Shown one piece after another: positions 5,652 through 35,395 of a stretch of 41,514 bases of DNA. The notes beneath the pieces are model-generated. The model did not search any database. It was given only the letters and a program-made list of their open reading frames with translations, and was not told where the DNA came from. Positions within the stretch are counted from its first letter, which is position 1. Every line of letters starts with the position of its first letter. Both the position numbers and the translations under genes were made by a program. Source of the DNA: an archaeon (GTDB taxonomy: Archaea > Nanobdellota > Nanobdellia > SCGC-AAA011-G17 > GW2011-AR20); NCBI GenBank assembly GCA_002687185.1, contig NYZO01000090.1, positions 1 to 41,514 of the forward strand, read 5' to 3'.

Positions 5652-6164
5652 ATGAAAAGATACATCGCTAAATCAATGATTATGCTAATCATATTTGCAC
5701 TTGTGATCACCCCAATAGTTGCAACCTCACACCAAGAAGAATTACTTGACGAGGACGAAGCGCCAACGCGAGAAGAAATAAAAGCGAAAATAGAAGAAGC
5801 CTCAATTGACGCAGAACTTACAAAAAGGATAAAGTTTATTTTACCCATCACAATGAAACTAACCCTCACAGATAGTGATGAAGAACCGTTTGTATTCGGG
5901 TTGTTTGCAGATGGTCTAACTATAATTGAAAATCCGAAAAAAATAGATCTTGCAATCACTGGCACAACCGAACAAACAATGGATGCGTTCGATGAAGATA
6001 CAGAAGATACAGGAAAAGCGTTAACTACGTTCTCGTTTAAAACACAATCATTTAAAGGAAGTGTGCTAGCTATAGGACTTGAAGCTGCTTATAATACAGT
6101 GTTGATTGAAGACCCAACCTTCTCGCAAAAAGTGCTTAAATGGGTTGTTAATAGATTTGTCTAG
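5652..6164 (+). CDS. hypothetical secreted or membrane-anchored acidic protein
   Basis: N-terminal hydrophobic helix (SMIMLIIFALVITPIVA) followed by an acidic region. Confidence 0.45.
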   Translation: MKRYIAKSMIMLIIFALVITPIVATSHQEELLDEDEAPTREEIKAKIEEASIDAELTKRIKFILPITMKLTLTDSDEEPFVFGLFADGLTIIENPKKIDLAITGTTEQTMDAFDEDTEDTGKALTTFSFKTQSFKGSVLAIGLEAAYNTVLIEDPTFSQKVLKWVVNRFV

Positions 6165-11425: not shown

Positions 11426-11698
11426 ATGAAACTTATTATTATGAAAAAATTAACACTATACCAACTAGAAACATGCCCGTATTGTATCACTGCACGTGAA
11501 GCCTTGGACGAGAAAGGAATAAAGTACGAAGTAGTGAACGTGCCAGGGCCAAGACCTGATAGAAAAGAAGTAATTGAGATCTCAGGACAAGCTGAAGTGC
11601 CAGTACTTGTAGTTGAGGAAGAAGGTAAAAAACAAGTAATATTTCATGACGAGAAAATTATTGAATATATTAACGAACATCCAGAGTTGAGTAAATAA
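11426..11698 (+). CDS. glutaredoxin-like protein
   Basis: 90 aa with a CPYC active site after a beta strand (LTLYQLETCPYCITAREAL) and a thioredoxin-fold length. Confidence 0.75.
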   Translation: MKLIIMKKLTLYQLETCPYCITAREALDEKGIKYEVVNVPGPRPDRKEVIEISGQAEVPVLVVEEEGKKQVIFHDEKIIEYINEHPELSK

Positions 11699-11704
11699 AC
11701 CGAA

Positions 11705-12697
11705 TTATGAATCGCAAGCTTGACTATTCGTACAATCAGGATCATTACTACAACAAGCAGTTACTTGTGACGGAATTGTCCATTGAGCGCTTTGATAATC
11801 AAGCGGGCAAACGCCGTCGGATACTGTGTCGCAATGTTTGACAACAGCACCAGAACACATCGAAATGCCAGGAGCGTTACAAACCTGACCGCTACAACCT
11901 ACACCGCCAGGGCAACAAACCAACGTATAACAATAACATTTCTCGCCTGATGCACAAACGCCACTTTGACTTTCGTCATCTTCAATATGGTAATAACCAG
12001 CATCGTTACTACAGGTGCCAAGAGGATCAGTACAGCCTGATGGCTGACTCGGAAGGACACTGCAACCACTAATATCGTAATTACCTAAACTGGTGCAGTA
12101 TTCGTCACAAGTCCCAAACGATGGAGGGAGGGTTGTAGTCGTTGTGCCGCCTGGAATAGTTGTTGTAGTACTACCAGGTAACGTAGTCGTAGTCGTTGGA
12201 GGCGGTGGCTGGACAACAGCAGTTGATGGACAAACACCGTCAGGGGTTGTGATACATACATGGATACCGCCAGTGTCAGCTGAAGTGGCCACGATCTTTA
12301 ATCGGTGAGTACCCTCACTTGATGGAAGAGTAATGGTCTCTCCAGAAATCTTTTTGCCCAACTGAATGTCAACGTTTGATCTAACAGCCACTTGGCTTTG
12401 AGCGCCGGTTGGAGCGCTTGTAACGAACACAATCTCGTCACTATTATCATCAACTAACACATATTCTATGCCGCCAGGAAAACGCACATCAATAGTATTT
12501 TGTGAGCCCTCGCCCAAATAATAAATGCTCTCTGCTTGTTTGATGATCTCTTTGCTGATAGCTTGGGTTTGACTCAAGTCTGTTTGATACTCAGAATCGG
12601 TTGTATACACAGTAAAGATTATCATAGTTGGGATCAAAAGTACTAATACAATGCCTACCAAGATTACATATTCAGTCGCAATCTGGCCACGTCTCAT
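11705..12697 (-). CDS. type IV pilin-like protein fused to a Thr/Pro linker and Cys-rich modules (putative pilus adhesin)
   Basis: Class III signal peptide MRRG|QIATEYVILVGIVLVLLI with Glu at +5. Thr/Pro linker at aa 164-192 (12122-12208). 12-Cys module at aa 197-273 (11879-12109). A second Cys motif at aa 281-328 (11714-11857). Confidence 0.75.
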   Translation of the reverse strand: MRRGQIATEYVILVGIVLVLLIPTMIIFTVYTTDSEYQTDLSQTQAISKEIIKQAESIYYLGEGSQNTIDVRFPGGIEYVLVDDNSDEIVFVTSAPTGAQSQVAVRSNVDIQLGKKISGETITLPSSEGTHRLKIVATSADTGGIHVCITTPDGVCPSTAVVQPPPPTTTTTLPGSTTTTIPGGTTTTTLPPSFGTCDEYCTSLGNYDISGCSVLPSQPSGCTDPLGTCSNDAGYYHIEDDESQSGVCASGEKCYCYTLVCCPGGVGCSGQVCNAPGISMCSGAVVKHCDTVSDGVCPLDYQSAQWTIPSQVTACCSNDPDCTNSQACDS

Positions 12698-12700
12698 TAG

Positions 12701-13144
12701 TTATGCCTCGACCGTCCCTGAAATAGTAAAAACAGAAGAGTGATCAAGACTTCCGCCGTCAAGCTTGTAATTAATAGATACAGTACCAGAATAAAAACTG
12801 TCAGCATCTAAGCCAGTAATAGTGCAAGTTATGGTGTCAGTCGGAAATGTGTCCCACCCATTACAGCTTGATGGAACTCCATTAATCTCAATTAAAACTG
12901 TAGGTTCTGGACTTGTTTCAATGCCAGTGCCAGTAATATCAAGCTCAATCTGGTTCGCGCCTGCACTCACCTTCAAATCGTTACACACGAACGGGTCGAT
13001 AAAAGAACACTGAGTCGGGACTGAAACACGACCCTGAGTCAAAAAGAACGCAGCGCCAACACCAATGCCGATCAATAATAAAGCGAACCCGTAAGTTGTT
13101 AAAAATTCTGTTGCCGCTTGACCTTTTCTCATATATTTTGCCAT
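12701..13144 (-). CDS. type IV pilin-like protein (candidate major pilin)
   Basis: Class III signal peptide MAKYMRKG|QAATEFLTTYGFALLLIGIGV with Glu at +5. Small 147-aa beta-rich body. Its start overlaps the upstream stop by 1 nt (TAATG). Confidence 0.75.
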   Translation of the reverse strand: MAKYMRKGQAATEFLTTYGFALLLIGIGVGAAFFLTQGRVSVPTQCSFIDPFVCNDLKVSAGANQIELDITGTGIETSPEPTVLIEINGVPSSCNGWDTFPTDTITCTITGLDADSFYSGTVSINYKLDGGSLDHSSVFTISGTVEA

Positions 13145-14160
13145 TATGTACCCACCCCTTGAAAAAACTTTCCTATAACTTTAATCAAGAAAAAGAATAA
13201 TAAGATAGAAATGCCTGCAAACACAGGGATAGTCTTTAAACCTTCTTTAGCGTTACCTTTGCGTACAGCAGATATGATCAATGACGAAAAAATAGAACTG
13301 ATAAGTAAGATGACAACCACAAACCACTGGAACATATCAGGCGTGATTTGGATAGTGCCTAAACTGAGCGGTAACTGCGATTGGCTTAATGTACTCTCAA
13401 TAGACGCGAAATCAACTTGGGATAATAAATTTTCCATTAAAGTGATCAATTGCAAAGCAACAGCGAACAACAGTGGAGACGCGACCACTGTGCTGAATGC
13501 GATGAAAATAACATAAGTAGTAACACTTGATGAAACTTCTTTGCGCATGATTGAAGATTCCTTGATGTTCCATGCGATCTTGTTCAATAATTCGCCGACA
13601 GCGCCACCAGCCTCAATGCCCTCAACAAGTAATGTAATAGATTTTTTGAGTGTGTCAGAATTGAAACGTTTAGTGAATGAAATTAGTGCCTCCTCAAGGT
13701 CAGAGCCGGTCATGGTCTTTTTGGCTGCGATCTGGATCTCTTGGGCAAGGATGCCAAAACGTGGTCGTACAGCAAACCATAGTGCTTGGTCAATAGTCAA
13801 TCCAGAGTCGACATTAGCAGCAACCAATTGCAAATAGTCAGACAGGACCGATTCGACAGCTACTGTGCGTTTGTGGATGCGCAGAATAATATACGAATAA
13901 AGACCTAAGGCAGCCACAAGAGCCCCACCAACTAAATAGACTAAAAATGACACAAGAAATGATAAAACAATCCCACCACCAGACAGTAAAGCAAGGTTTG
14001 ACTGAGGCAAGGCAATAGACAATATCGTTGCGCCAATACCAAGCAAAAACGTAATAATGACACCAAAAAGCATGATGTCAGCAGCAGTCCTTTGAGTGCC
14101 AGTCTTTTTCATGATCTCATTAAACTTTTTCTCCATGGTCGGCGTGAGCATTATGGCCAT
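13144..14160 (-). CDS. T2SSF-domain pilus platform protein (TadC/EpdK-like half)
   Basis: Polytopic membrane protein with one cytoplasmic T2SSF-like domain (LQLVAANVDSGLTIDQALWFA ... LVEGIEAGGAVGELL). Confidence 0.7.
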   Translation of the reverse strand: MAIMLTPTMEKKFNEIMKKTGTQRTAADIMLFGVIITFLLGIGATILSIALPQSNLALLSGGGIVLSFLVSFLVYLVGGALVAALGLYSYIILRIHKRTVAVESVLSDYLQLVAANVDSGLTIDQALWFAVRPRFGILAQEIQIAAKKTMTGSDLEEALISFTKRFNSDTLKKSITLLVEGIEAGGAVGELLNKIAWNIKESSIMRKEVSSSVTTYVIFIAFSTVVASPLLFAVALQLITLMENLLSQVDFASIESTLSQSQLPLSLGTIQITPDMFQWFVVVILLISSIFSSLIISAVRKGNAKEGLKTIPVFAGISILLFFFLIKVIGKFFQGVGT

Positions 14161-14161
14161 G

Positions 14162-14989
14162 TTAAATACTCACCCCTGGACGAGAACCCTGAATATACAA
14201 CAAGAAAAAAAGCTGAGCGAAACCTACCAGACCAGCAACCACGTACAATAACTTAATATCAAGCGGGATAGTAGACAAAAACATGGACAAGATTAAAATG
14301 ATAACCACACCCAAAGACGGCATAATAACTGTCACCATAAGATAAAACATAACGATAGGGTTTAGCTTGCGACCATAATCGCGCATTTCAACAATCTGCT
14401 CTGCAGTGATTTGTTTGAGGATCGCTTGCAAGGCTTGAGCCATGTCAGCACCAGTAGCTAACGCGTTCATGATCTGCCATAGAAATGTACGGAAATAAGC
14501 AGACGGAGTAGTGTTAATCAAGGTTTCAATGGCTTTGTCGATGGGTGTTCCAAGGCTTACGCGCTTGATCACGCTAGATAGTTCTTTGCTAATCTCACCG
14601 TAACCAGAAGAGGCGTTTGCAATAGCGTTATATAAAGGAACACCAGAAGTTAACTCAATTAAGATATATCTACCCGCAAAGACTACATCAGCGTCGATCT
14701 TTTTTTGCTTAGATTTCATCTTGAACACGGGCTGTTGCAGGAAGTAATTGAAAAATAAAAATGGGGTGAACAAGGTTAAGATTAATACGATGATAATGAA
14801 GATATTGAAGCCGAACCGGATTAAGGCCAATAATAAAACGAAAAATAATAATACACCGCCCATGATGAGAGCGCGCATTAACGATTTTCGAATGAACTCT
14901 TCAGGAGTGTTTTCTATGCCGGCTTGCTGAAGCTGAGCTTTGAAACCAGCTTTTTTGCGAAGCGTTGATCTTACAATTTGTTCTAGCAA
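14162..14989 (-). CDS. T2SSF-domain pilus platform protein (TadB/EpdJ-like half)
   Basis: Polytopic membrane protein with one T2SSF-like domain (LIELTSGVPLYNAIANAS ... IMNALATGADMAQAL). It lies 1 nt from the next gene. Confidence 0.7.
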   Translation of the reverse strand: MLEQIVRSTLRKKAGFKAQLQQAGIENTPEEFIRKSLMRALIMGGVLLFFVLLLALIRFGFNIFIIIVLILTLFTPFLFFNYFLQQPVFKMKSKQKKIDADVVFAGRYILIELTSGVPLYNAIANASSGYGEISKELSSVIKRVSLGTPIDKAIETLINTTPSAYFRTFLWQIMNALATGADMAQALQAILKQITAEQIVEMRDYGRKLNPIVMFYLMVTVIMPSLGVVIILILSMFLSTIPLDIKLLYVVAGLVGFAQLFFLLYIQGSRPGVSI

Positions 14990-14996
14990 TCTTTCA

Positions 14997-16502
14997 TCAC
15001 CTAGGCACGCTTGGTTTTTGTTGGGTTTTTTGAGGATGCTCTTGAGGAGATTTGATTTTGTTTAATAATGCTTTCTTGTTTGCGTAATATGCGGCAATAA
15101 CACGACCAACAGCATCAACTGTGTTAACACGGTTTTTGACCAGCCAATGTAATACTATCTCTTTCTCAGCTAAGTCGTTAGATAATTCAGGCAAACTCAT
15201 GCCGGTGTGCAACGCCAGACGCTTGATTAATGTGTTAGACTGGGCAACAGCGTTGATTTTGTTTGTGCGAGTGTCTAATTTGAATAATACATGAGCTCCA
15301 CCTCTCTCGTCAACCTCTGCAAACTCTAACATTCTACGGATGCCGGTGCGCCTGTTACGGTACATTACTAAAATGCCTGCAATGGCTGGGAGCATTAATA
15401 CAGGAACGTTAATAGGAGGGCTTGTTAAACGTGTGATCAGCTCAGCAGTATTATCAGCGTGCACTGTCGCATAAACTGCGTGACCTGTGTGGATAGACTC
15501 AAAGAGTACTTGAGCTTCACGCTCGCGACGGATCTCGCCAACAACAATACGGTCAGGGCGCATTCTTAGAGAGTTAATCATTAAGTCCAGCATGGAAACC
15601 TCGCCCTTGCCTTCAGTGTTTGGGAAACGCACGACCATAGGAACCCAATGAAGAAATTTAGGCAAACGCAATTCTAGGGTGTCCTCAATTGAGATGATTC
15701 GTTGGTTAGGCGGGAAGAAACCTGAAATTGCATTCAATGCGCTTGTCTTACCAGACGCGGTACCGCCGCTAACTAAAAGAGACATCTCGTATTGGCATGC
15801 CATCCAGACCAAAGCTGCAAGCGGCAGTGAAATAGTGCCCTCACTCAAGAAATCAACAATTGTCCAAGGCTTTGACGCGAACTTACGCAGAGTGATTGTG
15901 TTACCGCGCTTTGAAATTGGTGAAATAGTAGCATTAACACGGTCGCCGGTCTCTAGGTGCGCGTCCATAAGCGGCTTGAGAACAGTTATAGCACGACCAA
16001 CTTGTCGGCCGATCAAATTTGAATAATGACGAATTTGAGCCTCGTCTTTTAATTGGATATTAGTTTTGAGCCAACCGTGCTTGTGATGATAGACCCAAAT
16101 TGGCTCGGCAGCGTTATTGATCGCGATCTCTTCTAAATTACTATCGTCAAGTAAAATCTCTACCTTGCCCATGCCTAAGCTTTTTTGGATTAGATATGTC
16201 TTGAAAAAACTAGCAGCGCTAGGAGATACCGTTGGAAAGAATTGTGAAATTTTGATCTTGACCTGGGACTCGAACTTCTCTCTGATACGGTCCTTTTTTT
16301 TCGGGTCGGTCAAATCAGCCATGTCTAAATTGACTTCATCGACTAATAAATCTTTGATCTTGTTGAGAATAAGCTCAGTGTTCGGACTTAAATTTGGGAT
16401 GGATAATTCGTATACACGGACGAACTCGTCAGGCTTGGTCCTAATACGAACATAAATGGGAATGTTCTCTGAATAAAACTTGTAAGATTCAATGGCCACC
16501 AT
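14997..16502 (-). CDS. type IV pilus/secretion ATPase (FlaI/TadA/VirB11, GspE family)
   Basis: Walker A GGTASGKTS, Walker B/Asp box RPDRIVVGEIR, His box HTGHAVYATVHA, and an N-terminal ITLRKF-type motif. Confidence 0.85.
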   Translation of the reverse strand: MVAIESYKFYSENIPIYVRIRTKPDEFVRVYELSIPNLSPNTELILNKIKDLLVDEVNLDMADLTDPKKKDRIREKFESQVKIKISQFFPTVSPSAASFFKTYLIQKSLGMGKVEILLDDSNLEEIAINNAAEPIWVYHHKHGWLKTNIQLKDEAQIRHYSNLIGRQVGRAITVLKPLMDAHLETGDRVNATISPISKRGNTITLRKFASKPWTIVDFLSEGTISLPLAALVWMACQYEMSLLVSGGTASGKTSALNAISGFFPPNQRIISIEDTLELRLPKFLHWVPMVVRFPNTEGKGEVSMLDLMINSLRMRPDRIVVGEIRREREAQVLFESIHTGHAVYATVHADNTAELITRLTSPPINVPVLMLPAIAGILVMYRNRRTGIRRMLEFAEVDERGGAHVLFKLDTRTNKINAVAQSNTLIKRLALHTGMSLPELSNDLAEKEIVLHWLVKNRVNTVDAVGRVIAAYYANKKALLNKIKSPQEHPQKTQQKPSVPR

Positions 16503-16508
16503 CTTTTT

Positions 16509-17093
16509 TTAATGAGCATGCAGGTTGCCCATATAGCTTGCGATTTTTTGCAGGTTATTTTCGAATGCTTTGGTTTGGGACTCAATCTTTTTAAATCTTT
16601 CTCTCAAACGTACGAAATGGCGATACTTCTCTTTGTTAACCTCGAACTGTTTTAAATCAACGAGGAGTTTGAACGTTTGTTCTTCAAGCAATGTTTTCTG
16701 GTCTAAGATGATCGCGAGCGGTTTTGCAAGACGTTTCTTCTTACGCGGTCTCAGATCCAAATACTCTTTTTTTAACCATAATAAAAATTCGCGCTTGGCT
16801 TTGATGTCTTTGATGGTAGCTTGTGCTTTGATCAATAGAATATCACGCTCCTTTTCCATGTCTTCTTTGCTTTTCTTTAGATGTTTTATACGATTGGGAT
16901 CGGAAATAGTAAGATAAGGCGTAGAAAACTTATAATCTATCTGGAAAATCTTTGCCTCTTCTAAGAAAACTGCCCACTCGTGCACGATTGCTACTGGTAG
17001 GTTTAATTGTTTAGCAGCCTCGTCGATTGAGATGCGTTTTTCATTCTTAACAATATTAATGAACGTATCAACAGCAGTCTTAATCTCTTCCAT
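16509..17093 (-). CDS. wHTH plus coiled-coil accessory protein of the pilus locus
   Basis: HTH-like N-terminus (ISIDEAAKQLNLPVAIVHEWAVFLEE) followed by a Lys/Glu-rich coiled coil. It ends 6 nt upstream of the ATPase gene and has its own BRE/TATA. Confidence 0.5.
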   Translation of the reverse strand: MEEIKTAVDTFINIVKNEKRISIDEAAKQLNLPVAIVHEWAVFLEEAKIFQIDYKFSTPYLTISDPNRIKHLKKSKEDMEKERDILLIKAQATIKDIKAKREFLLWLKKEYLDLRPRKKKRLAKPLAIILDQKTLLEEQTFKLLVDLKQFEVNKEKYRHFVRLRERFKKIESQTKAFENNLQKIASYMGNLHAH

Positions 17094-17114
17094 AGTGATG
17101 ATTACGGTCAGATG

Positions 17115-17128
17115 ATTATTAAATCTTT
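17115..17128 (-). promoter_or_regulatory. internal BRE/TATA promoter (accessory-ATPase-platform-pilin sub-operon)
   Basis: The minus strand reads AAAGATTTAATAAT, centred ~26 nt upstream of the ATG at 17093. Confidence 0.45.
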
Positions 17129-17155
17129 GGTGTTACTTGTAAGTCGTCGTTGATG

Positions 17156-18694
17156 TCAGGTCTGGCACTCAATTTTGTTAATTTTCAGACCGTTACCAGC
17201 GCCGGTTGCATAATTGTCATCAGAATCTGTCTCGAAAGTGATGATCTTTGGATCATAGATATTCGGATTAAGTGTTGCGGTCAATTCACCATTATCTTTT
17301 CCGCTAATACTTTGTCCACCAACTATGCTAAAGACGTCTTTATTTAATTCAGTATCTATAATATACGTAAACTTAATCGTGTTTGTGCCTATTGGACATG
17401 TACAAGCAGTTGAACAACCCAAACCATCAATGTAATCATTGTGCCAGACATTGACACCTAAACCACCGTTTACACCATCCACTAAGCTCGGACATGAAAA
17501 AGCTGGACAGCTAGGAGGAGGAGGCGCAGGACTACAATCGCAACAAGTACGAGATAGAGGACTTTCTCGACAAAAGTCTGGTTGAGGAATGGTATAACTG
17601 CTATCTACACCGTATGAACAGTAACTAGTACAAGATTGGCTCGTACAAGAATATCCGCCATTACAACCCACATCAATACCACAAGAACAAGTACTTAAAC
17701 CGTATTGTCCAGCCAAGCCTGAGTCAAACCGGAAATTAGTTTCAGACCCGCTAGGATTGCATAAAGGTTCACTGCTAATGCTTACAACACAATCGTCGTC
17801 GTCTGCACTCACACCACCGTAATATTGCCAATCGAGTAATCGGTACTTTTGACTGTTACCACCAACATGGCCAGGTAGTAATGGGCGCTCTATGCCTAAA
17901 CTACTTGAACCAGGGCTTGGTTTGAACCTGTCAAGATAACTCCGGCCGCCGTTGCGCTCAACAAACTCTTGGTCGTTTGCAACGCTTGTATAATCAGTAG
18001 GTGAATTTGGAAACGATGATGCTTGGATAATCTTTAATTCACCACCGTTACGCAAAAGTATCGGATCTTGTGCAAAGTCAATTAAGCTAACGCGTGGAGT
18101 GATAGAGAACGTTCGGTCAAGGTCGATTTTTGGGTCTTGGGTAGACAATTCTAAACGGACACTAAACGGTTGACCGTCTGGCTGCTGTACAATAACTGAC
18201 CATGCATCGTCTTGAGTTATTTTGAGATCTGAGTCATCGAGGTTTTTTAAAGGTCCTCCTGAAGCAACACCCGTTAAGGTGATTTCGGTGCTGTCAAGGC
18301 CGGATTTTCCAGATAATGATTCAAACGAGGCTATTTGTTCTGCGATAGTGAAATCGTCCATGAACGAGTTTGTCACGCCGCCAGATCCGTCGATGCTGCC
18401 GTAGATCATAAGATTTGAGATCGCAGTTGGCGGATCGTTAAATGCAGAATTAGTATTGTCTTGTTTTAACTCGTCTTGCATGGCTACTAAAGCCTGTTTT
18501 AATGATAACTTCATAATGTCAACAATAAACGCGTCTTCAATATTACTACCAAAATCGGTCAAAGTAGTAACCCGAATCTGGTCAACAGTGATCTCGGTTT
18601 TTGTGTCTCTTATCTGATACGTTAAAAATAAAGCTAATAAAATCAAGACCAAACCAGCGGTCATAATAGTGAAGAAAAAACCGCGCCTATTCAT
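17156..18694 (-). CDS. large pilin-like protein with a Cys-rich region
   Basis: Class III-like N-terminus MNRRG|FFFTIMTAGLVLILLALFL. Cys-rich segment at aa 302-433 (17396-17791) containing CCDCSPAPPPPSCPAFSCP. Its start overlaps the upstream stop by 8 nt. Confidence 0.65.
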   Translation of the reverse strand: MNRRGFFFTIMTAGLVLILLALFLTYQIRDTKTEITVDQIRVTTLTDFGSNIEDAFIVDIMKLSLKQALVAMQDELKQDNTNSAFNDPPTAISNLMIYGSIDGSGGVTNSFMDDFTIAEQIASFESLSGKSGLDSTEITLTGVASGGPLKNLDDSDLKITQDDAWSVIVQQPDGQPFSVRLELSTQDPKIDLDRTFSITPRVSLIDFAQDPILLRNGGELKIIQASSFPNSPTDYTSVANDQEFVERNGGRSYLDRFKPSPGSSSLGIERPLLPGHVGGNSQKYRLLDWQYYGGVSADDDDCVVSISSEPLCNPSGSETNFRFDSGLAGQYGLSTCSCGIDVGCNGGYSCTSQSCTSYCSYGVDSSYTIPQPDFCRESPLSRTCCDCSPAPPPPSCPAFSCPSLVDGVNGGLGVNVWHNDYIDGLGCSTACTCPIGTNTIKFTYIIDTELNKDVFSIVGGQSISGKDNGELTATLNPNIYDPKIITFETDSDDNYATGAGNGLKINKIECQT

Positions 18695-20663
18695 TCAAAC
18701 CAACCTCGACGCCGATAATACTAGGATCCTGAATAGATGGCGCTGGTAGCGTTGTTGTTGTAGTGGTGGTGGTTGTAGTCGTAGTAGTAGAAGTTGTGGT
18801 AGTTGTGCCGCCAGGTAACGTAGTAGTTGTGGTCCCCCCACCGCCTGTTGCACAAGCGCTACCATCAGCTGTGCAGATATTGTCTGGACAACAAGTGAGT
18901 TCAATACAACGGCAAGTTCCGGCGGCGCAAGTGCCCCCTAGAGCATCAAATATTGTTCCTTCGCCGGCGTTTGGCAAACAAGAAGTGAACGATTCCATGC
19001 AGAACATGTCCGAAGGAGTGACTTGGCAGGTCGATAAATAAGTAGGATCAAGATCAGTACAATACTCCTGACAAGATACCCCTGGAGGTATTCCTGGAGG
19101 TGGTGGAGTACATTCATTACCATCACAAGGGCCGAAATTACAACAACTGACCATGCCACAATAACAACTTTCGCCCAAGATTGGACAACTACCACCGCCG
19201 AACTGGTAATGAATCTCGCCTGAGCCAGAACACTCTAGCGGTATTGAATCTGAACAAATACTGGCAGGCAAACTCGAACCGCATATGGATTCAGTCGTGC
19301 CGAAGATGTCATTACACGAAGTAGCGCAATCATCAATTTCAGGGATAGTTGTTGTGGTCGTGGTTGTTGTAGTTGTAGTGGTGGTAGTTGTAGTCGTTGT
19401 AGTAGTAGTTGTAGTTGTGGTTGGAGGAGTAGTGTCACAAGAAACGCCGTCAGCTGTACAAAGATTTTCTGTACAACAAGATATGTCAATACAATAACAA
19501 GATTCGCCAGGGTTGCAGGTGCCGCCGCTGCCTGAAATGATTAAACCTTCACCGGCGTTAGGTAAACAAGAAGTGAACGATTCTATGCAAAAATCAGTTA
19601 CTGGTGTGGTTGAGCATGACGGAAGGTAATTAGGATCAAGGCCTGTACAATATTGTGAGCAAGTAGGTACTATAGGCGGCGGTATAGGAACAGAACAATC
19701 AATTCCGTTTGGATCACACTGATTGGTATCACAACAAGTTACAGTGCCACAATAACATGATTCTCCAGGGTCGCATGTGCCGCCGCCGGGTTGGTAGCGT
19801 ATCTCACCAGTGCTGGTAGCAGGGCACTCAGAAGGTATTGATTCAGAACAAATATCGCCAGGCTGGCTTAATTCACACCTTGGTTGTGTTGAGCCGAATA
19901 CGTCGCTGCAGACCGTAGCACAATCATCAGCAGGGATCGTAGTCGTAGTAGTCGTTGTAGTAGTAGTAGTAGTGGTTGTAGTAGTAGTGGTGGTAGTCGT
20001 AGTAGTGGGAGTCGAGCCGCATGCAGTACCGTCAACAGAACAAAGATTTTCTGAGCAACAACCTAAATTTACACACAAACAAAACTCGCCAGGGTCACAA
20101 AGATCAGCACCCCCTGGCACATAATTTAGGACGCCTGCATTTGGACTGCACAAATCAGTGAAGCAACTGTCCGGACGGGTTGCATCATCCCAACAGCCAC
20201 CGCCGAAATAGGTATTTGCAACGCAATCAGCTTGGCAGGTTGGTGAAGGCACGGTTGTAGTGGTGGTAGTCGTTGTAGTAGTTGTGGTAGTTGTTGTGGT
20301 TGTAGTCGTTGTAGTAGTAGGAGGAATAGTCGTTGTTGTGGTTGGTTCTATAGTGGTTGTTGTCGTTGGAGGGATAGTCGTAGTAGTGGTGGTCGTAGTT
20401 GTAGTAGTCGTGGTAGTGGTCGTAGTAGTTGTGGTGGGGGGAGGACAAGAATCACATTGAGGATCGCAACACTCGCCGTCGCTAGGACAACTCACCTTAT
20501 TTCCATAATCGCTTGGACAGACCGCGTCAACATCACCGCAAGTATAAGTTATAGTAGAACAAAAAGTAATATACGGACACGCTGCGTTAACTGTTTCTAG
20601 ACCAATAGAAAGAAAGAATACTAAAGAAATAATAATTATAATATATTTTACCCTGTTCATCAA
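18687..20663 (-). CDS. secreted mosaic Cys-module/poly-Thr surface protein (putative adhesin)
   Basis: Sec-type signal peptide (cleavage near VNA|A). N-terminal 9-Cys domain (aa 28-76). Five 12-Cys modules (aa 143-219, 248-334, 335-414, 446-530, 531-610) separated by poly-Thr tracts. No C-terminal TM anchor. Confidence 0.8.
   Translation of the reverse strand: MMNRVKYIIIIISLVFFLSIGLETVNAACPYITFCSTITYTCGDVDAVCPSDYGNKVSCPSDGECCDPQCDSCPPPTTTTTTTTTTTTTTTTTTTTIPPTTTTTIEPTTTTTIPPTTTTTTTTTTTTTTTTTTTTTTVPSPTCQADCVANTYFGGGCWDDATRPDSCFTDLCSPNAGVLNYVPGGADLCDPGEFCLCVNLGCCSENLCSVDGTACGSTPTTTTTTTTTTTTTTTTTTTTTTTIPADDCATVCSDVFGSTQPRCELSQPGDICSESIPSECPATSTGEIRYQPGGGTCDPGESCYCGTVTCCDTNQCDPNGIDCSVPIPPPIVPTCSQYCTGLDPNYLPSCSTTPVTDFCIESFTSCLPNAGEGLIISGSGGTCNPGESCYCIDISCCTENLCTADGVSCDTTPPTTTTTTTTTTTTTTTTTTTTTTTTTIPEIDDCATSCNDIFGTTESICGSSLPASICSDSIPLECSGSGEIHYQFGGGSCPILGESCYCGMVSCCNFGPCDGNECTPPPPGIPPGVSCQEYCTDLDPTYLSTCQVTPSDMFCMESFTSCLPNAGEGTIFDALGGTCAAGTCRCIELTCCPDNICTADGSACATGGGGTTTTTLPGGTTTTTSTTTTTTTTTTTTTLPAPSIQDPSIIGVEVGLNE
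18750..18833 (-). repeat. C-terminal Thr-rich tract (T5-LPGG-T5-S-T13)
   Basis: Read from the ORF translation, aa 611-638. Confidence 0.85.
18834..19922 (-). repeat. tandem duplication of a two-module unit (period ~590 nt) inside the 658-aa gene
   Basis: Modules 2+3 (19422-19922) and modules 4+5 (18834-19328) are collinear: CATVCSDVFG.../CSQYCTGLDPNY... versus CATSCNDIFG.../CQEYCTDLDPTY.... An identical 20-mer, AAACAAGAAGTGAACGATTC, occurs at 18976-18995 and 19564-19583. Confidence 0.8.
19347..19421 (-). repeat. poly-Thr coding tract (25 consecutive Thr codons)
   Basis: Codon-by-codon reading places it between CDTTPP and IPEIDD. ACN codons are mixed. Confidence 0.9.
19938..20006 (-). repeat. 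poly-Thr coding tract (23 consecutive Thr codons)
   Basis: Codon-by-codon reading places it between CGSTP and IPADD. ACC, ACT, ACA and ACG codons are mixed. Confidence 0.9.
20253..20435 (-). repeat. Thr/Pro-rich spacer coding tract (61 codons: ~T20-IPP-T5-IEP-T5-IPP-~T22)
   Basis: Run of mixed ACN codons read codon by codon on the minus strand. It produces a poly-Val pseudo-ORF on the plus strand. Confidence 0.9.
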
Positions 20664-20701
20664 CTGCGCCCTCTTTTTGTCTATAAGAACGTGCAGTCTG
20701 A

Positions 20702-20718
20702 GAATTTATATAAAGCTT
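20702..20718 (-). promoter_or_regulatory. internal BRE/TATA promoter of the 658-aa gene
   Basis: The minus strand reads AAAGCTTTATATAAATT ~44 nt upstream of the ATG at 20663. A GAGGG Shine-Dalgarno-like element lies ~10 nt upstream of the ATG. Confidence 0.5.
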
Positions 20719-20744
20719 TTGCTCATTTTTCCTTGATACAGAAT

Positions 20745-21215
20745 TTATCCTTGCTGAACACTGACGCCAGATTGAATCCTGCGTGACACAACAACAATGC
20801 GCGAATCAGTGGTTGCGACTGAGTTGTCGAGGTTCATCTTGAGTGAATATTGTTTAGTATACAACCCTTCTACAAGCTGTCTTTTCATACAATCTATCCT
20901 AGTGAGTTCCTCTCCATCACAGGTTATTGTTAGTGTGCCGAATTCGTCATCGTAAACACGCATCTGCTCAATCACCGTTAAATCAGTGTCAAGATCGCTA
21001 AACTGAGAGTCAGTAATGAAAGGATAATAACCCTCATCTTGTTTAAGCTCTTCAATCCTTACGTTTGAAAGTACATCCAAAGTATCAGTTGCTAAATATT
21101 GTAATTGAGTTAGAGGAGGTGAATTAATATAAAATAAATGGACCAATAAAACCACTAACGTAAACAATACTAAAGCTAGAATCGCGTCCAGTGTGAAAAA
21201 ATAGCCGCGTTTCAT
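20745..21215 (-). CDS. pilin-like protein (minor pilin candidate)
   Basis: Class III-like N-terminus MKRG|YFFTLDAILALVLFTLVVLLV. 156 aa. Confidence 0.6.
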   Translation of the reverse strand: MKRGYFFTLDAILALVLFTLVVLLVHLFYINSPPLTQLQYLATDTLDVLSNVRIEELKQDEGYYPFITDSQFSDLDTDLTVIEQMRVYDDEFGTLTITCDGEELTRIDCMKRQLVEGLYTKQYSLKMNLDNSVATTDSRIVVVSRRIQSGVSVQQG

Positions 21216-21216
21216 A

Positions 21217-21819
21217 TTATTCGGTCCAGACCAACACAGTCATCCTCAATATTCTATCATACGTGTCATCAACAAACACTAAACGGTTGAACTCAATTAT
21301 TTGTTTGATCTCTTTGTTTTGGACGCGTGTTTCAATCTCGTCTCTAACCTCTGTGACCGTGGTCCAACCGCCATCATCGTTGTCGACATGTAATTTTCCA
21401 GCGCCTGTGTGTCCTGGTGCCGGATAAATAATCGATCTATCATTAAGATAAACATAAAAATGTTTGTTAGTGCCAAGTCGAAGCTGGGCTTTTGCGTAAT
21501 TCTGATCAGTTAACGTGCCGTCGCCTAACTTACGTAACTTATCCAGATTAAAACGTTTATTACCGTCTGTTAAGCCGAGTTGTTTTACCGATGGATCGTC
21601 CCACCACTCACTATGGGTATTCCAATCCGTTGGCTCTCCAACAGCGATCAAATTTTGACTGATCTCTTGAGCTTCAATTAGTAACCCTTCAGTTAAGTTC
21701 TTAGTTTGTGTCATGCCAATCACTGTTTTTACGAAAATGAGCGAAATAATACTAATTATTATGATCGCCATGATAAAGTCCATGTACCAAAATTGACCAC
21801 GCTTTTTAATCGGTTTCAT
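21217..21819 (-). CDS. pilin-like protein (minor pilin candidate)
   Basis: Class III-like N-terminus MKPIKKRG|QFWYMDFIMAIIIISIISLIF. 200 aa. It overlaps the upstream gene by 4 nt. Confidence 0.6.
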   Translation of the reverse strand: MKPIKKRGQFWYMDFIMAIIIISIISLIFVKTVIGMTQTKNLTEGLLIEAQEISQNLIAVGEPTDWNTHSEWWDDPSVKQLGLTDGNKRFNLDKLRKLGDGTLTDQNYAKAQLRLGTNKHFYVYLNDRSIIYPAPGHTGAGKLHVDNDDGGWTTVTEVRDEIETRVQNKEIKQIIEFNRLVFVDDTYDRILRMTVLVWTE

Positions 21820-22250
21820 AGTGATGATTGTACACTCACAGTTATATCTCCGTTTATGTCTTTATTAATTTTGATGAAACGGTTTTGTGGAGTTATGTCG
21901 ATATCCAATGGAGTGTTAGATATTTCTATAGGCAAAAGCTTTGCAGAGGTGGACGGTTGACCTAAAATATTGGTCTGTACAGCGATCTCACGAGCGCCAA
22001 ATTGCAAAGAATACTCTTCTCCTGCAATGTCTGGGGGTAAGCTAAAAACACGCTCGTATTCAGGCCTTACACGGCCGGCTAACGATAACTCAGTTTTTAC
22101 TTTTAAAGCAATGTCTTCAGCACTGAACGTTTTACGTGCGCTGACAACATCGCGCGTATAAATAAATTCGATAGTGATAAAACCGATCAATAATATCATG
22201 GCAAGAGAAACCAGTAAAATTAATTCAATGGAAACCTGGCCGCGTCTCAT
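21816..22250 (-). CDS. pilin-like protein (minor pilin candidate)
   Basis: Class III signal peptide MRRG|QVSIELILLVSLAMILLIGF with the QxSxE pattern and Glu at +5. 144 aa. First gene of the locus. Confidence 0.7.
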   Translation of the reverse strand: MRRGQVSIELILLVSLAMILLIGFITIEFIYTRDVVSARKTFSAEDIALKVKTELSLAGRVRPEYERVFSLPPDIAGEEYSLQFGAREIAVQTNILGQPSTSAKLLPIEISNTPLDIDITPQNRFIKINKDINGDITVSVQSSL

Positions 22251-22273: not shown

Positions 22274-22287
22274 TTCTTAAAAGCTTT
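22274..22287 (-). promoter_or_regulatory. BRE/TATA promoter of the pilus locus
   Basis: The minus strand reads AAAGCTTTTAAGAA, centred ~28 nt upstream of the ATG at 22250. Confidence 0.45.
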
Positions 22288-25498: not shown

Positions 25499-28400
25499 TC
25501 AATTCTCCTTAAAAACCGGGCCTCCAGGATATCTACTAGGTCCTTTAAACGAACCATCTTCTTCAAATTCGTGGGGAACTGGAGTCAGAGATTCCTCAGG
25601 GGCAATAATACCCTTTGATGCAGCTTGTGGCCATAATTTTCGCCCGGCGTCAGCAAAATCTTCGCCACATTCTGGAGATGCACCTAGACAGGTTTGAAAG
25701 TAAACTTTTCCACCAGGTTTTAGCATTGATCCAAATCCTGCTTGCCTAAACACCCCGGAAAAATCACGCGGAAATACCTGCTTCTCTTCACCCAAAGCTT
25801 TTCCTTGAGCAGGATCCCCTGTCCCAAACGCCATCGATAATTTTTCAGGTTCACCTTCTGGATAGCCTCCATGAGCATTGAAAATGATTGTATCTGCTGG
25901 ATATTTCGCCTCTTGACCATCCCATCCTGTAACTTCTTGCATGAACGTGATTATTTCTTGTTTTGTACTCAGATCATCATACACAACACGGTTTGAACCA
26001 AGTACTGAACTATGTGAATCTATTTCAGAAATTTCTGGATACATTAGATCCTCCATTTGTTGTTGGCCAACAGGCGTTGCGAACGCATCATTATAATCAA
26101 AATCAGGACCTACCACGATTACAAAATCACGATCATCATTACCAATACCTTCCGCATTTACGTTTTTATTATTTTCAACTAATTCTTGTAAAAGCTCAGT
26201 CGTTTTAAATCTGGATACATGGCTAATCCTCTCATTTTTGATTGCATTATGTATTATACTAACCTTATCTGCAATTTCTGGATCCGAAGAGTGCTTAGCG
26301 GTTTCTAGATCATGTAATACATCAAAATCACGAAAATCTTGTTGATTATAAAGCCCACCTATAACATAAAGACCGATATCTTCGAGTTCAGCATCTCCTA
26401 GGTTCGCTATTGCAGTATCTAATGCAGGCTGACCAAAATTCGCAAGAACTTCTAGACCATTCCTTCTCGTTAGTTCATTACCAACATCCATTGCATTAGC
26501 TAGTGGAGGAATAACTTCGTCGTGTGGCAATTTTGTCAGCGCGGTTATGGCTTCTGCTATAACAAACGGCCCTTTATTATCTAAATCTTTAATGATTACA
26601 CTTATCGTATTTGGATTATCAGCCCCGTAATCTCCAAGAAGATGTATTGATACTCGACGAAGATTATGTTCATTGCGAGGGTCAGTTAGTGAATTAATTA
26701 AGCTCTGCACTACTTCTTCTTTATTTTCTCCTTGTAAATGCCTTTCCAAGCTACTAATTATTTCCCCTCGTGATTGTTCATTGTATTCACGGTCAAGATG
26801 ATAAATCAATGTGGTAATCACACTGATGTCATTTAGTCCACCAAGATATTTTATAGCAGAAACCCTTAGCGCTACGTGATCACTTTTTAGCGCACTAACT
26901 ATCGCCCATTTTGCTTCATTCCCACCTATCTTACTCAGTGTATCAAATGCCCTAAATCGTACATTTCCATTAGGACTAGTTAAAAATTCCTTAAACCTTT
27001 GTATAGATTCAAAGTCCTCGAGCTCTCCAAGAGCAAATATTGCATTCGCTTGAACCGATGTCTCTTTATCATCCAATGCCTCTCTCAAAAAAATTAAAGC
27101 TTCCTGTTTTTTTAGTTGACCCAAAGAACGTGCTGCCTCGCTTCGAACAAATGTATCTTCATCTTTCAACATTCCGATCAAAGGTCCGACAACCCTAGGG
27201 TCATCAATCTCGCCAAAAGTTGCAGCAATCACCCGTCTCACATTAGGATGTGTATCCTCTTTTAGTTGATTTAACATAGGTACTATAGCCACCTCACCCA
27301 TTTCTACTAACAGTTCCTCTGCTACTAACCTCGCAAAATTATATTTTGAAGCTCGTAATAACAAGTGGACAATAGTCTGTTTTTCACCATCAGTTGTAGT
27401 TGGATCATAAGCAACATCCACAAGATTATCTAGCCCAACAGACAACCGATTTATTCTTTCTTCTGATAATCCATTTTGATCAAGTTCATCCAAAATTTGA
27501 ATAATTGTTTTATAAGTATCTGCATGAAATTCCCAGCTATGTACTTCTCTTTGAGCTGCATCGATAACATTTTCAGTTTCAGAAGTAGGACCTCCTCCAC
27601 TAGACGATTGCTCAGCATCACTTGAGGATTCATCTTCTATATATGATTCCATTTCATCTCCAGGAATCGCACCAAAAAATGCAGAAAGAAACATCCCCAT
27701 CCAACCCATCCCCATATTTTGTGCAGATAGCCCTGACACTTCCTCAATAGGTTTAAATGATCCGGTTTGTTGCGACGATGGTCTAAATAACGGCCTATAA
27801 GCACCCAATTCCGCCTCAGAAGTTTCCCATTCTTTTCTTACATCATATGTTTTCTTGGATTTCCCAGCTGGCAGAATATTCGATTTTATCTCTGCTGATA
27901 GATCATTAATCGTTCGACGCCTCCCCATTACAGGTTCGGCAGGAGCAAGATCAGAATTCTTCAGATTCCCCCTCATTTGATCAAAAGGCATATATTTTTT
28001 ATGACCTGGCCTCTTTGGATCATCCACTGCGAACCCGTACTCCCTCTTTGATCGCGGTTTATCTCTGGTTTCTGGATCAAGCATAATTTGCCTTCGAACA
28101 TCGTTGCCATTTTCGTCTCTTATCCAAACGTAAATGCTCGTCCCACCAACAATTTCCCCTCCTATTTTTCTATCACCACTTAACACTACCCCATCATGCT
28201 TGAGCGCGTCTTCTCCGTTCATTGAAAGCAAATTACCATTCCTTAAATCAAACAGCCATTCAGCATTCCATGATTGTCTACTTCCTTTACGAATAACACG
28301 AACGAGATTGCTTTTCCCATACGCATAATCTTCAGATAATTCGAGGTCTGTAACTATACCATCAATGGGTAATACATCTACATTTTTGGTTCGGGTTTTC

Positions 28401-29266
28401 AACCATCCTGAAAAAAAAGCACTCAAAACACCATTCTTTTTCGTAGTAGTAAATAAAATTTTGTCTTCTATCGTAGTCCAGTGTGTAAGTCTATCTTGGC
28501 GAATATGAGCTTTAGAATCAATAATTATTTCTACAGTTTCTACTACTGGTTTATTATAATCTTTGTTTAGTAGTCCACCATGCCCTTCCCGATATGTTCG
28601 TTGCTCAATCAGTTTTTGCGGTAATTTATTTGAACCAAAATCACCATAGGCAGAATCTCCGTACGCATTGTCTGTTCCAATAGGCTCATGTATATATGTA
28701 GAAGCCACAGACACCAGATTATCGTTTAGCCTCGCTCCAGGAACAAGTGTTAAAATACCAGCAACATTTTGCTCACACTCCGCTGTGTTACATCTCGTCC
28801 GAGTAAAGATTATTTTCTTCATGACCCTGTCTTGTTCATCTAGATATCTAAATTCAATCTTCTTTGACATATACTTCCCACCATATTTCCAAGAAACACT
28901 ATCAAAGATTGACCAAAGAGGCAGGTTTAGATCCACAGCAATTAATCGACTCGAGTCGTACACGTTCCATCCAGGTGTCCCAGCAATCGGGGGATTAAGC
29001 GCCTTAGGTTCCACTGGCCTTTCTCTTAGTCCAAAGATAACTTCTAGGATGCCATAACCAGTAAGATCTACTTTATTAGCCGAATTCAACACAGGCTCTG
29101 TAACATCCACCCAAATATCTGAGAACAGTTCAAACATAAGTGCAATAGGCGAATTTCTATTAGTTATATTTTTTTTAACTTGAGATTCAGCACTTACAGT
29201 TATAAGAGAGAGTATTAAAAACACACATAGCAGAGAGCTGAAAATGGTTTTAACCTTAGACTTCAT
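25499..29266 (-). CDS. large secreted protein: N-terminal unknown region, HEAT/PBS-lyase-like repeats, C-terminal clan-CD-like cysteine peptidase domain
   Basis: Signal peptide MKSKVKTIFSSLLCVFLILSLITVSA. HEAT-like repeats (DPRVVGPLIGMLKDEDTFVRSEAARSLGQL and others) at roughly 26400-27330. The C-terminus has hydrophobic strand+HG (TIIFNAHGG, His codon 25871-25873) and hydrophobic strand+QxC (KVYFQTCLG, Cys codon 25688-25690). Confidence 0.6.
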   Translation of the reverse strand: MKSKVKTIFSSLLCVFLILSLITVSAESQVKKNITNRNSPIALMFELFSDIWVDVTEPVLNSANKVDLTGYGILEVIFGLRERPVEPKALNPPIAGTPGWNVYDSSRLIAVDLNLPLWSIFDSVSWKYGGKYMSKKIEFRYLDEQDRVMKKIIFTRTRCNTAECEQNVAGILTLVPGARLNDNLVSVASTYIHEPIGTDNAYGDSAYGDFGSNKLPQKLIEQRTYREGHGGLLNKDYNKPVVETVEIIIDSKAHIRQDRLTHWTTIEDKILFTTTKKNGVLSAFFSGWLKTRTKNVDVLPIDGIVTDLELSEDYAYGKSNLVRVIRKGSRQSWNAEWLFDLRNGNLLSMNGEDALKHDGVVLSGDRKIGGEIVGGTSIYVWIRDENGNDVRRQIMLDPETRDKPRSKREYGFAVDDPKRPGHKKYMPFDQMRGNLKNSDLAPAEPVMGRRRTINDLSAEIKSNILPAGKSKKTYDVRKEWETSEAELGAYRPLFRPSSQQTGSFKPIEEVSGLSAQNMGMGWMGMFLSAFFGAIPGDEMESYIEDESSSDAEQSSSGGGPTSETENVIDAAQREVHSWEFHADTYKTIIQILDELDQNGLSEERINRLSVGLDNLVDVAYDPTTTDGEKQTIVHLLLRASKYNFARLVAEELLVEMGEVAIVPMLNQLKEDTHPNVRRVIAATFGEIDDPRVVGPLIGMLKDEDTFVRSEAARSLGQLKKQEALIFLREALDDKETSVQANAIFALGELEDFESIQRFKEFLTSPNGNVRFRAFDTLSKIGGNEAKWAIVSALKSDHVALRVSAIKYLGGLNDISVITTLIYHLDREYNEQSRGEIISSLERHLQGENKEEVVQSLINSLTDPRNEHNLRRVSIHLLGDYGADNPNTISVIIKDLDNKGPFVIAEAITALTKLPHDEVIPPLANAMDVGNELTRRNGLEVLANFGQPALDTAIANLGDAELEDIGLYVIGGLYNQQDFRDFDVLHDLETAKHSSDPEIADKVSIIHNAIKNERISHVSRFKTTELLQELVENNKNVNAEGIGNDDRDFVIVVGPDFDYNDAFATPVGQQQMEDLMYPEISEIDSHSSVLGSNRVVYDDLSTKQEIITFMQEVTGWDGQEAKYPADTIIFNAHGGYPEGEPEKLSMAFGTGDPAQGKALGEEKQVFPRDFSGVFRQAGFGSMLKPGGKVYFQTCLGASPECGEDFADAGRKLWPQAASKGIIAPEESLTPVPHEFEEDGSFKGPSRYPGGPVFKEN

Positions 29267-33146: not shown

Positions 33147-33147
33147 A

Positions 33148-35394: not shown

Positions 35395-35395
35395 G

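Follow-up and report, generated by a model that had tools for sequence, protein, structure and literature searches.

Little is known of how DPANN archaea locate their hosts and keep hold of them, with pili being the usual suspects, and an eleven-gene pilus-like locus on contig NYZO01000090.1 (GenBank assembly GCA_002687185.1) raises the question of what machine such an archaeon builds on its surface and with what part of it the cell could hold on. In the following, the window is the whole 41,514-nucleotide (nt) stretch of this contig, and the genes of the locus are numbered g1 to g11 from position 22250 down to position 11705. The comparisons described below are best explained, with a probability that we put at about 60%, by an adhesive Epd-like pilus of a marine Woesearchaeota-like DPANN archaeon that would display a lineage-specific set of adhesins on its pilins; the role in adhesion is one that we infer. 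The machine itself is an ordinary, already published DPANN pilus cluster and no new kind of machine. The new content lies in a six-family pilin architecture, in a modular adhesin end and in one orphan module that is displayed on pilins, offering candidate specificity determinants for binding studies along with pilin signatures for re-annotating DPANN genomes.

The eleven-gene locus and its assembly machine

An open reading frame (ORF) listing shows eleven ORFs at 11705-22250, all co-directional on the minus strand, as a first-pass annotation of the letters had described them. They encode six proteins with class III-type N-termini, a T2SSE ATPase (g7), two single-domain T2SSF proteins (g8 and g9), a winged helix-turn-helix (wHTH)/coiled-coil protein (g6) and a Sec-secreted Cys/Thr-rich mosaic protein (g4). 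From g1 to g11 the intergenic distances are -4, +1, +81, -8, +62, +6, +7, +1, -1 and +3 nt, so that the two gaps above 20 nt of the earlier description stand, whereas its overlaps of 1-8 nt are confined to three junctions (4, 8 and 1 nt) and five others are spacers of 1-7 nt. Elements resembling a B recognition element (BRE)/TATA box, of the type AAAG(C/A)TTT(A/T), occur on the minus strand in both gaps, where the annotation had placed them, and also upstream of g1: AAAGCTTTTAAG at 22276-22287 (37 nt upstream of the g1 start), AAAGCTTTATATA at 20707-20719 (between g3 and g4, 59 nt before the g4 ATG) and AAAGATTTAATAA at 17116-17128 (between g5 and g6, 35 nt before the g6 start). Since two unrelated genes of the window are also preceded by AAAG-N-TTTA-like elements, at -37, these probably represent the BRE/TATA consensus of the organism. 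From the placement of the elements, the locus may comprise three transcription units, namely g1-g3, g4-g5 and g6-g11.

The assembly ATPase g7 (501 amino acids (aa); 14997-16502, minus strand, as for all eleven genes) matches T2SSE (PF00437, E = 1.5e-34) and retains its motifs, with a Walker A sequence GGTASGKTS at residue 246, a Walker B sequence RIVVGEIR at residue 318 and a His box at residue 338. Among solved structures it matches the archaeal GspE 2OAP best (239 bits, E = 1.1e-69), presumably a non-archaellum enzyme of Archaeoglobus, followed in this ranking of best hits by Sulfolobus FlaI (182 bits) and CpaF (152 bits). FlaI is its top NCBIfam model, yet with 260 bits against an equivalog cut-off of 550, and the scores with the TadA model (TIGR03819; 182 bits, cut-off 373) and with the NCBIfam model of the bindosome ATPase BasE (150 bits, cut-off 1000) likewise fall short. 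The platform is encoded by two half-size genes, g8 (275 aa; 14162-14989) and g9 (338 aa; 13144-14160), each with one T2SSF domain (PF00482; E = 6.9e-16 and 3.5e-13, respectively) and with four and six predicted transmembrane (TM) segments, respectively. On the NCBIfam FlaJ model of 465 positions, g8 spans positions 2-172 and g9 spans 263-463, and this complementary coverage identifies them as the two halves of a normal FlaJ/PilC-type platform. The Pfam and NCBIfam profile scans thus bear out the T2SSE ATPase and the split T2SSF platform that the annotation had read from the letters. The same scans (Pfam only in the case of g11) gave no match to archaellum accessory proteins or archaellin among the proteins of the locus, again as the annotation had it; with a FlaI score well below the cut-off, a split platform and no FlaF, FlaG, FlaH or archaellin in the locus, a reading as an archaellum is rejected.

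To place the locus among its relatives, we used 80 loci retrieved by a scan with the g7 ATPase, with one genome per GTDB species, whose ATPases are 51-62% identical to g7. About half of them bear the label of Woesearchaeota, Nanoarchaeota or some other DPANN lineage, which agrees with the DPANN-type archaeon suspected at first, and most of the others are 'TPA_asm' metagenome-assembled genomes (MAGs) titled 'uncultured Methanosarcinales archaeon', a label quoted here as deposited. A comparison of synteny, proposed as a check on the annotation, was carried out with phmmer and showed a conserved order: five pilin families that we call A, B, C, D and E, followed by a g6-like gene, the ATPase, two TadC-like genes and a sixth pilin family, F, recur in this sequence in many of the 80 loci. 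Matches were found in 80 loci for g7, 75 for g8, 72 for g9, 68 for g6, 50 for g10 and 22-42 for families A-E, all of these counts being lower bounds because many contigs end inside the cluster. As this synteny is kept across dozens of genomes, the cluster is not a chance arrangement. The sequence of the window itself recurs on two short metagenome contigs in ENA at 99.2-99.9% identity, one of which is annotated as marine metagenome.

The g6 gene (194 aa; 16509-17093) encodes an N-terminal winged helix followed by a coiled coil, and has neither a signal peptide nor a TM segment. A g6-like gene lies immediately upstream of the ATPase in 68 of the 80 loci, an example being L008:8708-9850, and the wHTH/coiled-coil assignment is upheld at the level of the family: 9 of 13 members match HTH_24 (best E = 3.4e-6) and the top PDB profile match is LrpA. 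Compared with its family, g6 has about half the usual length, as does another short member of 188 aa (locus L029). The g6 protein is probably the 'CCP' (coiled-coil protein) of published DPANN pilus-like loci (PMC11291902), which Hamm et al. (2024) read as resembling a viral attachment fibre (sigma-1-like). The winged-helix N-domain and the missing export signal and TM segment make a cytoplasmic location of g6 probable, and a cytoplasmic regulator or scaffold is, on the features of the family, more likely than a virus-fibre-like surface protein; the published viral-attachment-like view of DPANN CCPs may therefore need revisiting.

Six pilin families and a reduced D pilin

If the machine is a pilus, which of the neighbouring proteins does it assemble? 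In all six candidate pilins, a basic leader of 3-8 residues closes with [KR][KR]G, after which come Q, Y or F and a single hydrophobic segment. The [KR][KR]G motif and the residue after it can be seen directly in the sequences and had been noticed from them, as had the Glu at +5 that exactly three of the six carry: g1 (RRG/QVSIE, the slash marking the cleavage position), g10 (RKG/QAATE) and g11 (RRG/QIATE). These three combine Gln at +1 with Glu at +5, g2 has the Gln only, and g3 and g5 have neither; the signal motifs are conserved within each family in the relatives. Elsewhere in the window, hydrophobic N-termini are found only in one ORF with a Sec-type signal (5652-6164) and in one polytopic protein, both of them without [KR]G. 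The +1 Gln/+5 Glu signals, the paired PilC-type platform and the missed archaellum cut-offs together argue for an Epd-like, non-archaellum machine, and the signals, the platform pair and the FlaI score below the cut-off support the earlier proposal of an Epd/Tad-like pilus rather than a motility organelle.

Each of the six proteins belongs to one of the recurrent families. Family A is a pilin of about 139 aa that resembles the N-terminal domain of g11. Family B comprises g1-like proteins of about 130 aa; g1 itself (144 aa; 21816-22250) is a minor pilin with the signal MRRG/QVSIE, one TM segment and sub-threshold Pfam matches to Class_IIIsignal and DUF7266, and homologues occupy the same position in 40 of the 80 loci. 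The minor pilin g2 (200 aa; 21217-21819; signal KKRG/QFWYMD) typifies family C, whose motif KAQxW[YF]TDF is found in 41 loci, and g3 typifies family D, with the motif KKGxFFTxDA. Family E consists of proteins of about 325 aa that resemble g5 (512 aa; 17156-18694; signal NRRG/FFFT), of which residues 1-270 represent the family E part, matching 22 relatives, and are followed by a Cys-rich C-terminal extension of about 220 aa that matches none of them. An affinity of this extension with the modules of g4 (see below) was considered and is unproven, as only compositional BLAST matches, obtained without composition correction, speak for it.

Family F is a pilin of about 158 aa, of which one to three copies often follow the platform genes, and has a near-invariant N-terminus, KxQAAMEFLMTYGWAI. 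It comprises at least 4392 public protein clusters, nearly all of them named 'hypothetical protein' and a few 'UPF0333 family'. Its representative in the window, g10 (12701-13144; signal RKG/QAATE; four Cys), had been given 147 aa, and this length is that of the ORF as called, whereas public gene calls begin at Met5 and give 143 aa. An AlphaFold model computed with 71 family members (pLDDT 83) predicts a helix at residues 3-33 followed by an eight-strand beta-sandwich, a shape consistent with that of a pilin. Because it is small and belongs to the most conserved family, one that is often present in several copies, g10 is the probable major pilin. More generally, the six-pilin architecture is common to many Woesearchaeota and Nanoarchaeota genomes, in which nearly all of the pilins are annotated as 'hypothetical' and lie outside Pfam.

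The pilin set and the ATPase also bear on whether a long filament is made at all. The machine might instead be a bindosome- or pseudopilus-like device for display or secretion, in which g11 and g5 would form a short surface assembly with g4 as its cargo. Archaeal machines of the type IV pilus kind do build structures other than filaments, the BasE model does register g7, three of the six pilin-like proteins stand out by size or by unusual signals (aromatic at +1, no Glu at +5), and g4 is exported by Sec and unanchored. However, the 150 bits with BasE stand against a cut-off of 1000, a small, highly conserved and often multi-copy F pilin is typical of the major subunit of a filament, and a single-membrane cell should, as a matter of general knowledge, need no piston for a protein that Sec exports. 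We consider such a device quite improbable, and an Epd-like filament remains our preferred reading.

Where relatives carry a conspicuous candidate adhesin, the window has a stump. The family D pilins of the relatives have a median length of 921 aa and reach 1635 aa, 26 of 41 show a DxSGSM motif of the metal ion-dependent adhesion site (MIDAS) type near residue 400, and in three loci (L019, L049 and L038) a von Willebrand factor A (vWA) domain scores above the Pfam threshold. A terminal strand, VPSLWGPxxxEVRVWQ, is present in 38 of 40 full-length D proteins, including short forms of 172-182 aa, and because this C-terminal strand is kept in long and short forms alike, the variable part must be inserted inside the pilin, an insertion architecture that by analogy is reminiscent of GspK. 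The large inserts, in proteins of 600-1635 aa (for example L057:2682-7526, L019:4549-7371, L049:3797-7531 and L038:2572-7479), include MIDAS-bearing vWA segments and MAM/galactose-binding-like segments. In the window, g3 (156 aa; 20745-21215; signal MKRG/YFFTLD) has no vWA insert, and its alignment with the short D forms covers residues 1-150 and no more, the conserved C-terminal strand being missing. This strand is not encoded in any frame of the 81-nt gap between g3 and g4. The idea of a split pilin was considered as well, in which the C-terminal tail of g4 (..DPSIIGVEVGLNE) would be the displaced D strand and would dock g4 on g3 by strand complementation; a hidden Markov model (HMM) built from 40 D-family tails and run against the window in six frames failed to detect g4, leaving the idea unsupported.

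The truncation of g3 raises the possibility of a decaying locus, whose pilus no longer assembles and whose Cys-rich genes are recent and functionally unrelated insertions. Besides the missing insert and strand of g3, the half-length g6 and the absence of the canonical A gene upstream of g1 would fit such decay, but none of the 11 reading frames is broken and their coupling is tight, the motifs of the ATPase are preserved, and three independent assemblies show no variation in g10 and g11. Relatives whose clusters are otherwise complete moreover have short D forms of 172-182 aa or, in L029, a short g6 of 188 aa. We regard decay as very improbable, and take the locus to encode a working pilus whose D pilin has been reduced.

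A 12-Cys module on pilins and in a secreted protein

What could then serve for attachment in place of the D pilin? The best candidate is a module of about 78 residues that is found in g4 and g11. The mosaic protein g4 (18687-20660) had been listed with 658 aa; the ATG at 20660 is the likelier start and gives 657 aa. It begins with a signal peptide cleaved after VNA, which is of the Sec type and not class III, followed by a small Cys motif and five copies of the module separated by poly-Thr linkers of 25-64 residues, and it has no anchor. The gene overlaps g5 by 8 nt and is preceded by a promoter-like element of its own; none of the 80 related loci encodes a homologue. The modular pilin g11 (330 aa; 11705-12697) combines a family A pilin domain (12209-12697; 42% identical to the A pilin of locus L002, E = 2e-20), a poly-Thr/Pro linker (12131-12208), one 12-Cys module that aligns with those of g4 (11888-12130) and a small Cys motif (11708-11887). 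An alignment of all six copies, five from g4 and one from g11, shows 12 conserved Cys in every one of them. As g11 is the only A-type pilin of the window, placed at the end of the operon and not upstream of g1, the module that it carries is proposed to be built into the pilus.

The N-terminus of g4 (20445-20582) and the C-terminus of g11 (11708-11887) perhaps have another small Cys motif in common, P.I[ST].CS...C..V.D.VCP.DY ... CC..DP.C. The similarity between residues 27-72 of g4 and 271-330 of g11 is tentative, with a pairwise E of 0.002 over 26 residues. Next to g11, and convergent with the pilus operon, lies a glutaredoxin gene (90 aa; 11426-11698, plus strand) that ends 6 nt from the g11 stop, an arrangement also present on two other metagenome contigs.

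The annotation had been unable to assign the Cys/Thr-rich set to any known family, and searches of families, PDB and Foldseek ended without a match as well: g4 has none in Pfam, NCBIfam or PHROGs, the module part of g11 has none in Pfam or PHROGs, and the fold of the module gave a best E of 2 with Foldseek against PDB and no match with a PDB sequence profile. Neither a word-indexed search of 5.8 billion proteins nor two metagenome pattern scans and one viral scan returned a homologue, the module alignment itself being too variable for a pattern scan. An exhaustive HMMER scan against 1.84 billion representatives returned three matches, two of which were rejected as repeat artefacts (PPC-like and NHL-like repeats). 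The one genuine match, P0003, is a fragment of 219 residues on a metagenome contig of 658 bp, in which a poly-Thr linker joins an F-type pilin domain (matching g10 with E = 7e-8) to a module that is 52-61% identical to the copies of g4 (E = 5e-17). The module has thus been attached to pilins of two kinds, A-type in g11 and F-type in P0003.

Other extensions are attached to pilins in the relatives. Locus L038 encodes an A-type pilin with an unrelated Cys-rich extension (14330-15649; DNDGIDNDCDG) in the operon position of g11, loci L070 and L072 encode B pilins with Ig-like extensions, and in locus L055 a 474-aa Cys-repeat protein (17749-19173; CGN..E..E.CDG) adjoins an F pilin. Taken with the D pilins, these sequences are evidence that the adhesin end of the DPANN pilus is modular, accommodating vWA domains, Ig-like and other Cys-rich extensions, and the 12-Cys module.

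From these elements a model of the pilus can be drawn. The prepilins would be inserted in the membrane and cleaved after [KR]G by a peptidase of the EppA/PibD type encoded elsewhere, and g10, as the F-type pilin, would then be polymerised by the ATPase-platform motor. Five minor pilins, namely g11 of family A, g1 of B, g2 of C, g3 of D and g5 of E, would prime assembly and sit at the tip, a role modelled on bacterial GspH-K or TadE/F/G. In many relatives the vWA-bearing D pilin would be the likely adhesin, and in the lineage of the window, where it is reduced to a stump, adhesion to a host cell, a particle or a glycan would instead be conferred by the module of about 78 aa, probably knotted by disulfides (six are probable) and held out on poly-Thr stalks that are probably O-glycosylated. 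The distinct Cys-rich extension would be displayed on g5, and g4, translationally coupled to g5, would probably join the pilus or the cell surface non-covalently. A further step, which we advance as a tentative and rather doubtful possibility, would make the 12-Cys module an adhesin domain of a new kind, knotted by disulfides and restricted to one lineage, which marine Woesearchaeota move from one pilin carrier to another; together with a secreted, multi-copy protein that docks on the pilus, it would form an exchangeable host-recognition cassette replacing the ancestral vWA tip adhesin.

The role of g4 is where this model can most readily be disputed. The pilus could be real and g4 an unrelated surface or S-layer-type glycoprotein, with the Cys/Thr-rich segments acting as spacers or as armour against proteases or redox stress. 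S-layer-like proteins are indeed frequent passengers of archaeal pilus loci (PMC4858521), g4 has its own promoter-like element, a Sec rather than a class III signal and no detectable binding function, and relatives such as L055 encode Cys-rich secreted proteins of other, unrelated kinds close to F pilins. Yet the module has been fused covalently to pilins twice and independently, in g11 and in P0003, g4 lies between pilin genes with the 8-nt overlap with g5, and the C-terminal membrane anchor expected of an S-layer protein is absent. An unrelated surface glycoprotein is on balance unlikely, and we favour g4 as a part of the attachment apparatus.

Several observations nevertheless weigh against an adhesive Epd-like pilus. 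The filament itself is predicted from its genes. Three of the pilins (g2, g3 and g5) lack the Glu at +5, with an aromatic residue at +1 in g3 and g5, and the class III model proposed with the annotation as a check on the N-termini stayed below threshold or silent: Pfam Class_IIIsignal gave 17.7 bits for g1 and 22.3 bits for g11, below the gathering threshold of 23.7, and was silent on g2, g3, g5 and g10 and on 71 of 71 family F members tested. Foldseek matched the g10 model to generic Ig-like folds (CopC), and its top 50 matches included no solved archaeal pilin. No ORF of the window has a Pfam match to an A24 prepilin peptidase, the sole unassigned polytopic protein of the window (40342-41196) lacks a GxGD motif, and a crude screen of the 80 loci for multiple TM segments with GxGD gave five candidates, none of them obviously A24-like in this screen without HMM confirmation; in archaea the prepilin peptidase is usually encoded away from the pilus locus. 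The truncated g3 may be non-functional. As to the module, only one of five AlphaFold models was confident (pLDDT 90, with a helix and four strands; 46-73 for the others), no binding function was detectable by Pfam, Foldseek or PDB profile, and g4, having no anchor, is linked to the pilus only through the shared modules and the gene position. Nor do the sequences bear the marks of an arms race: the poly-Thr tracts use mixed ACN codons with no pure slippage repeats and are therefore not slippage-prone, and g10 and g11 show zero differences across the contigs of two other populations (three assemblies in all), so that there is no sign of host-driven diversification.

The remainder of the window contains genes of other kinds. 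On the plus strand, a CheC/CheX-like phosphatase domain protein (136-744), which hints at motility or chemotaxis genes elsewhere in the genome, is followed by a 358-aa protein without a family match (797-1873). A gene for a nucleotidyltransferase toxin of the AbiEii type and the 213-aa gene upstream of it, which has no family match, overlap each other (3480-4791, minus strand) and are probably a type IV toxin-antitoxin pair. A HEAT-repeat protein of 1255 aa (25499-29266, minus strand) is large for a small-genome archaeon and lies in a region of strongly negative GC skew. Further on, a glycolytic string (32118-36256, plus strand) comprises GAPDH, a 748-aa protein in which phosphoglycerate kinase is fused to a pfkB-family sugar kinase, an unusual combination, and a ROK-family kinase.

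Comparison with known pilus systems

The closest published counterparts are the two conserved type IV pilus-like loci that Hamm et al. (2024) report across cluster-2 DPANN including Woesearchaeota (PMC11291902); these loci have a CpaF-like ATPase, TadC and coiled-coil proteins, and are found in Woesearchaeota, Pacearchaeota, Nanoarchaeota and others. The core of ATPase, TadC and coiled-coil protein is common to the window and to 68-80 of the 80 related loci. Filament proteins (FlaF, PilA) appear to be annotated there for locus 1 only, as against six pilin families here, and the loci are described there without the Cys/Thr-rich modules that the window has. Jarett et al. (2018) had already found two pilus systems and an archaellum in Nanoarchaeota and proposed a role in host attachment (PMC6142677). 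Given these two studies, the machine is of a known kind and attachment is its standard hypothesis. A groundwater preprint that used pili to tell the candidate phyla radiation (CPR) from DPANN took the latter as being without type IV pilus genes (10.1101/2020.05.14.094862); the complete cluster is present in four NC_groundwater Woesearchaeota MAGs (L008, L009, L014 and L021), which appear to come from the same project.

In the census of Makarova et al. (2016), two tadC genes are common in the euryarchaeal clades 1 and 2, and nanoarchaeal ATPases fall into clade 2 (PMC4858521), a census that predates the Woesearchaeota genomes. Clade-2 pili of the Haloferax PilB3/PilB4 type likewise combine an ATPase and TadC with several minor pilins and a single family of major pilins, and weak matches link g1 to DUF7266 and the C pilin of a relative to DUF7287, all DUF matches being sub-threshold. 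We take both DUFs to be haloarchaeal pilin-like families. The archaellum employs the same ATPase and platform superfamily, with a single FlaJ where the window has a split platform.

The bacterial Tad/Flp pilus shares with the window a split platform, a CpaF-related ATPase and several pseudopilin-like minor subunits, and its TadG carries a vWA domain, as does family D in the relatives (PMC4858521). It differs in that the signals and pilins of the window are archaeal and the TadA cut-off is missed; TadZ, RcpA and the Flp pilin were not met in the Pfam and NCBIfam scans of the locus, which included no dedicated search for them.

More of the locus agrees with the Epd pilus of Methanococcus maripaludis, which likewise co-encodes one ATPase with two PilC paralogues, as g7 is followed here by g8 and g9. 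In that system, the ATPase EpdL acts with two essential PilC paralogues, EpdJ and EpdK, like bacterial TadB/TadC (PMC4371748), an arrangement that the first-pass annotation had named for the split platform and with which the g8/g9 pair agrees. Cleavage of Epd pilins takes place at [KR][GA]/Q, and their dedicated peptidase EppA needs Gln at +1 and Glu at +5 (PMC4371748); g1, g10 and g11 fit this signal exactly and g2 in part, so that it holds for half of the set of the window. EppA is part of the Epd system and is not found in the window, whose pilin families have no significant match to characterised pilins.

The adhesin end finally recalls the modular pilins of bacteria, exemplified by PilB, with a vWA module, and PilC, with a lectin module, of Streptococcus sanguinis, which Raynaud et al. 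(2021) surveyed using the pilin motif IPR012902, with archaea absent from the main text (PMC8179133). The same logic of a pilin plus a grafted module is followed by g11, by P0003, by the A-type pilin of L038 (14330-15649) and by the vWA-bearing D family, and g5, an E pilin with its extension, is also a pilin plus an extra module. What sets the locus apart from these bacterial pilins is that its module, without a known family or fold, stands behind a poly-Thr linker and is also carried, in multiple copies, by a Sec-secreted protein.

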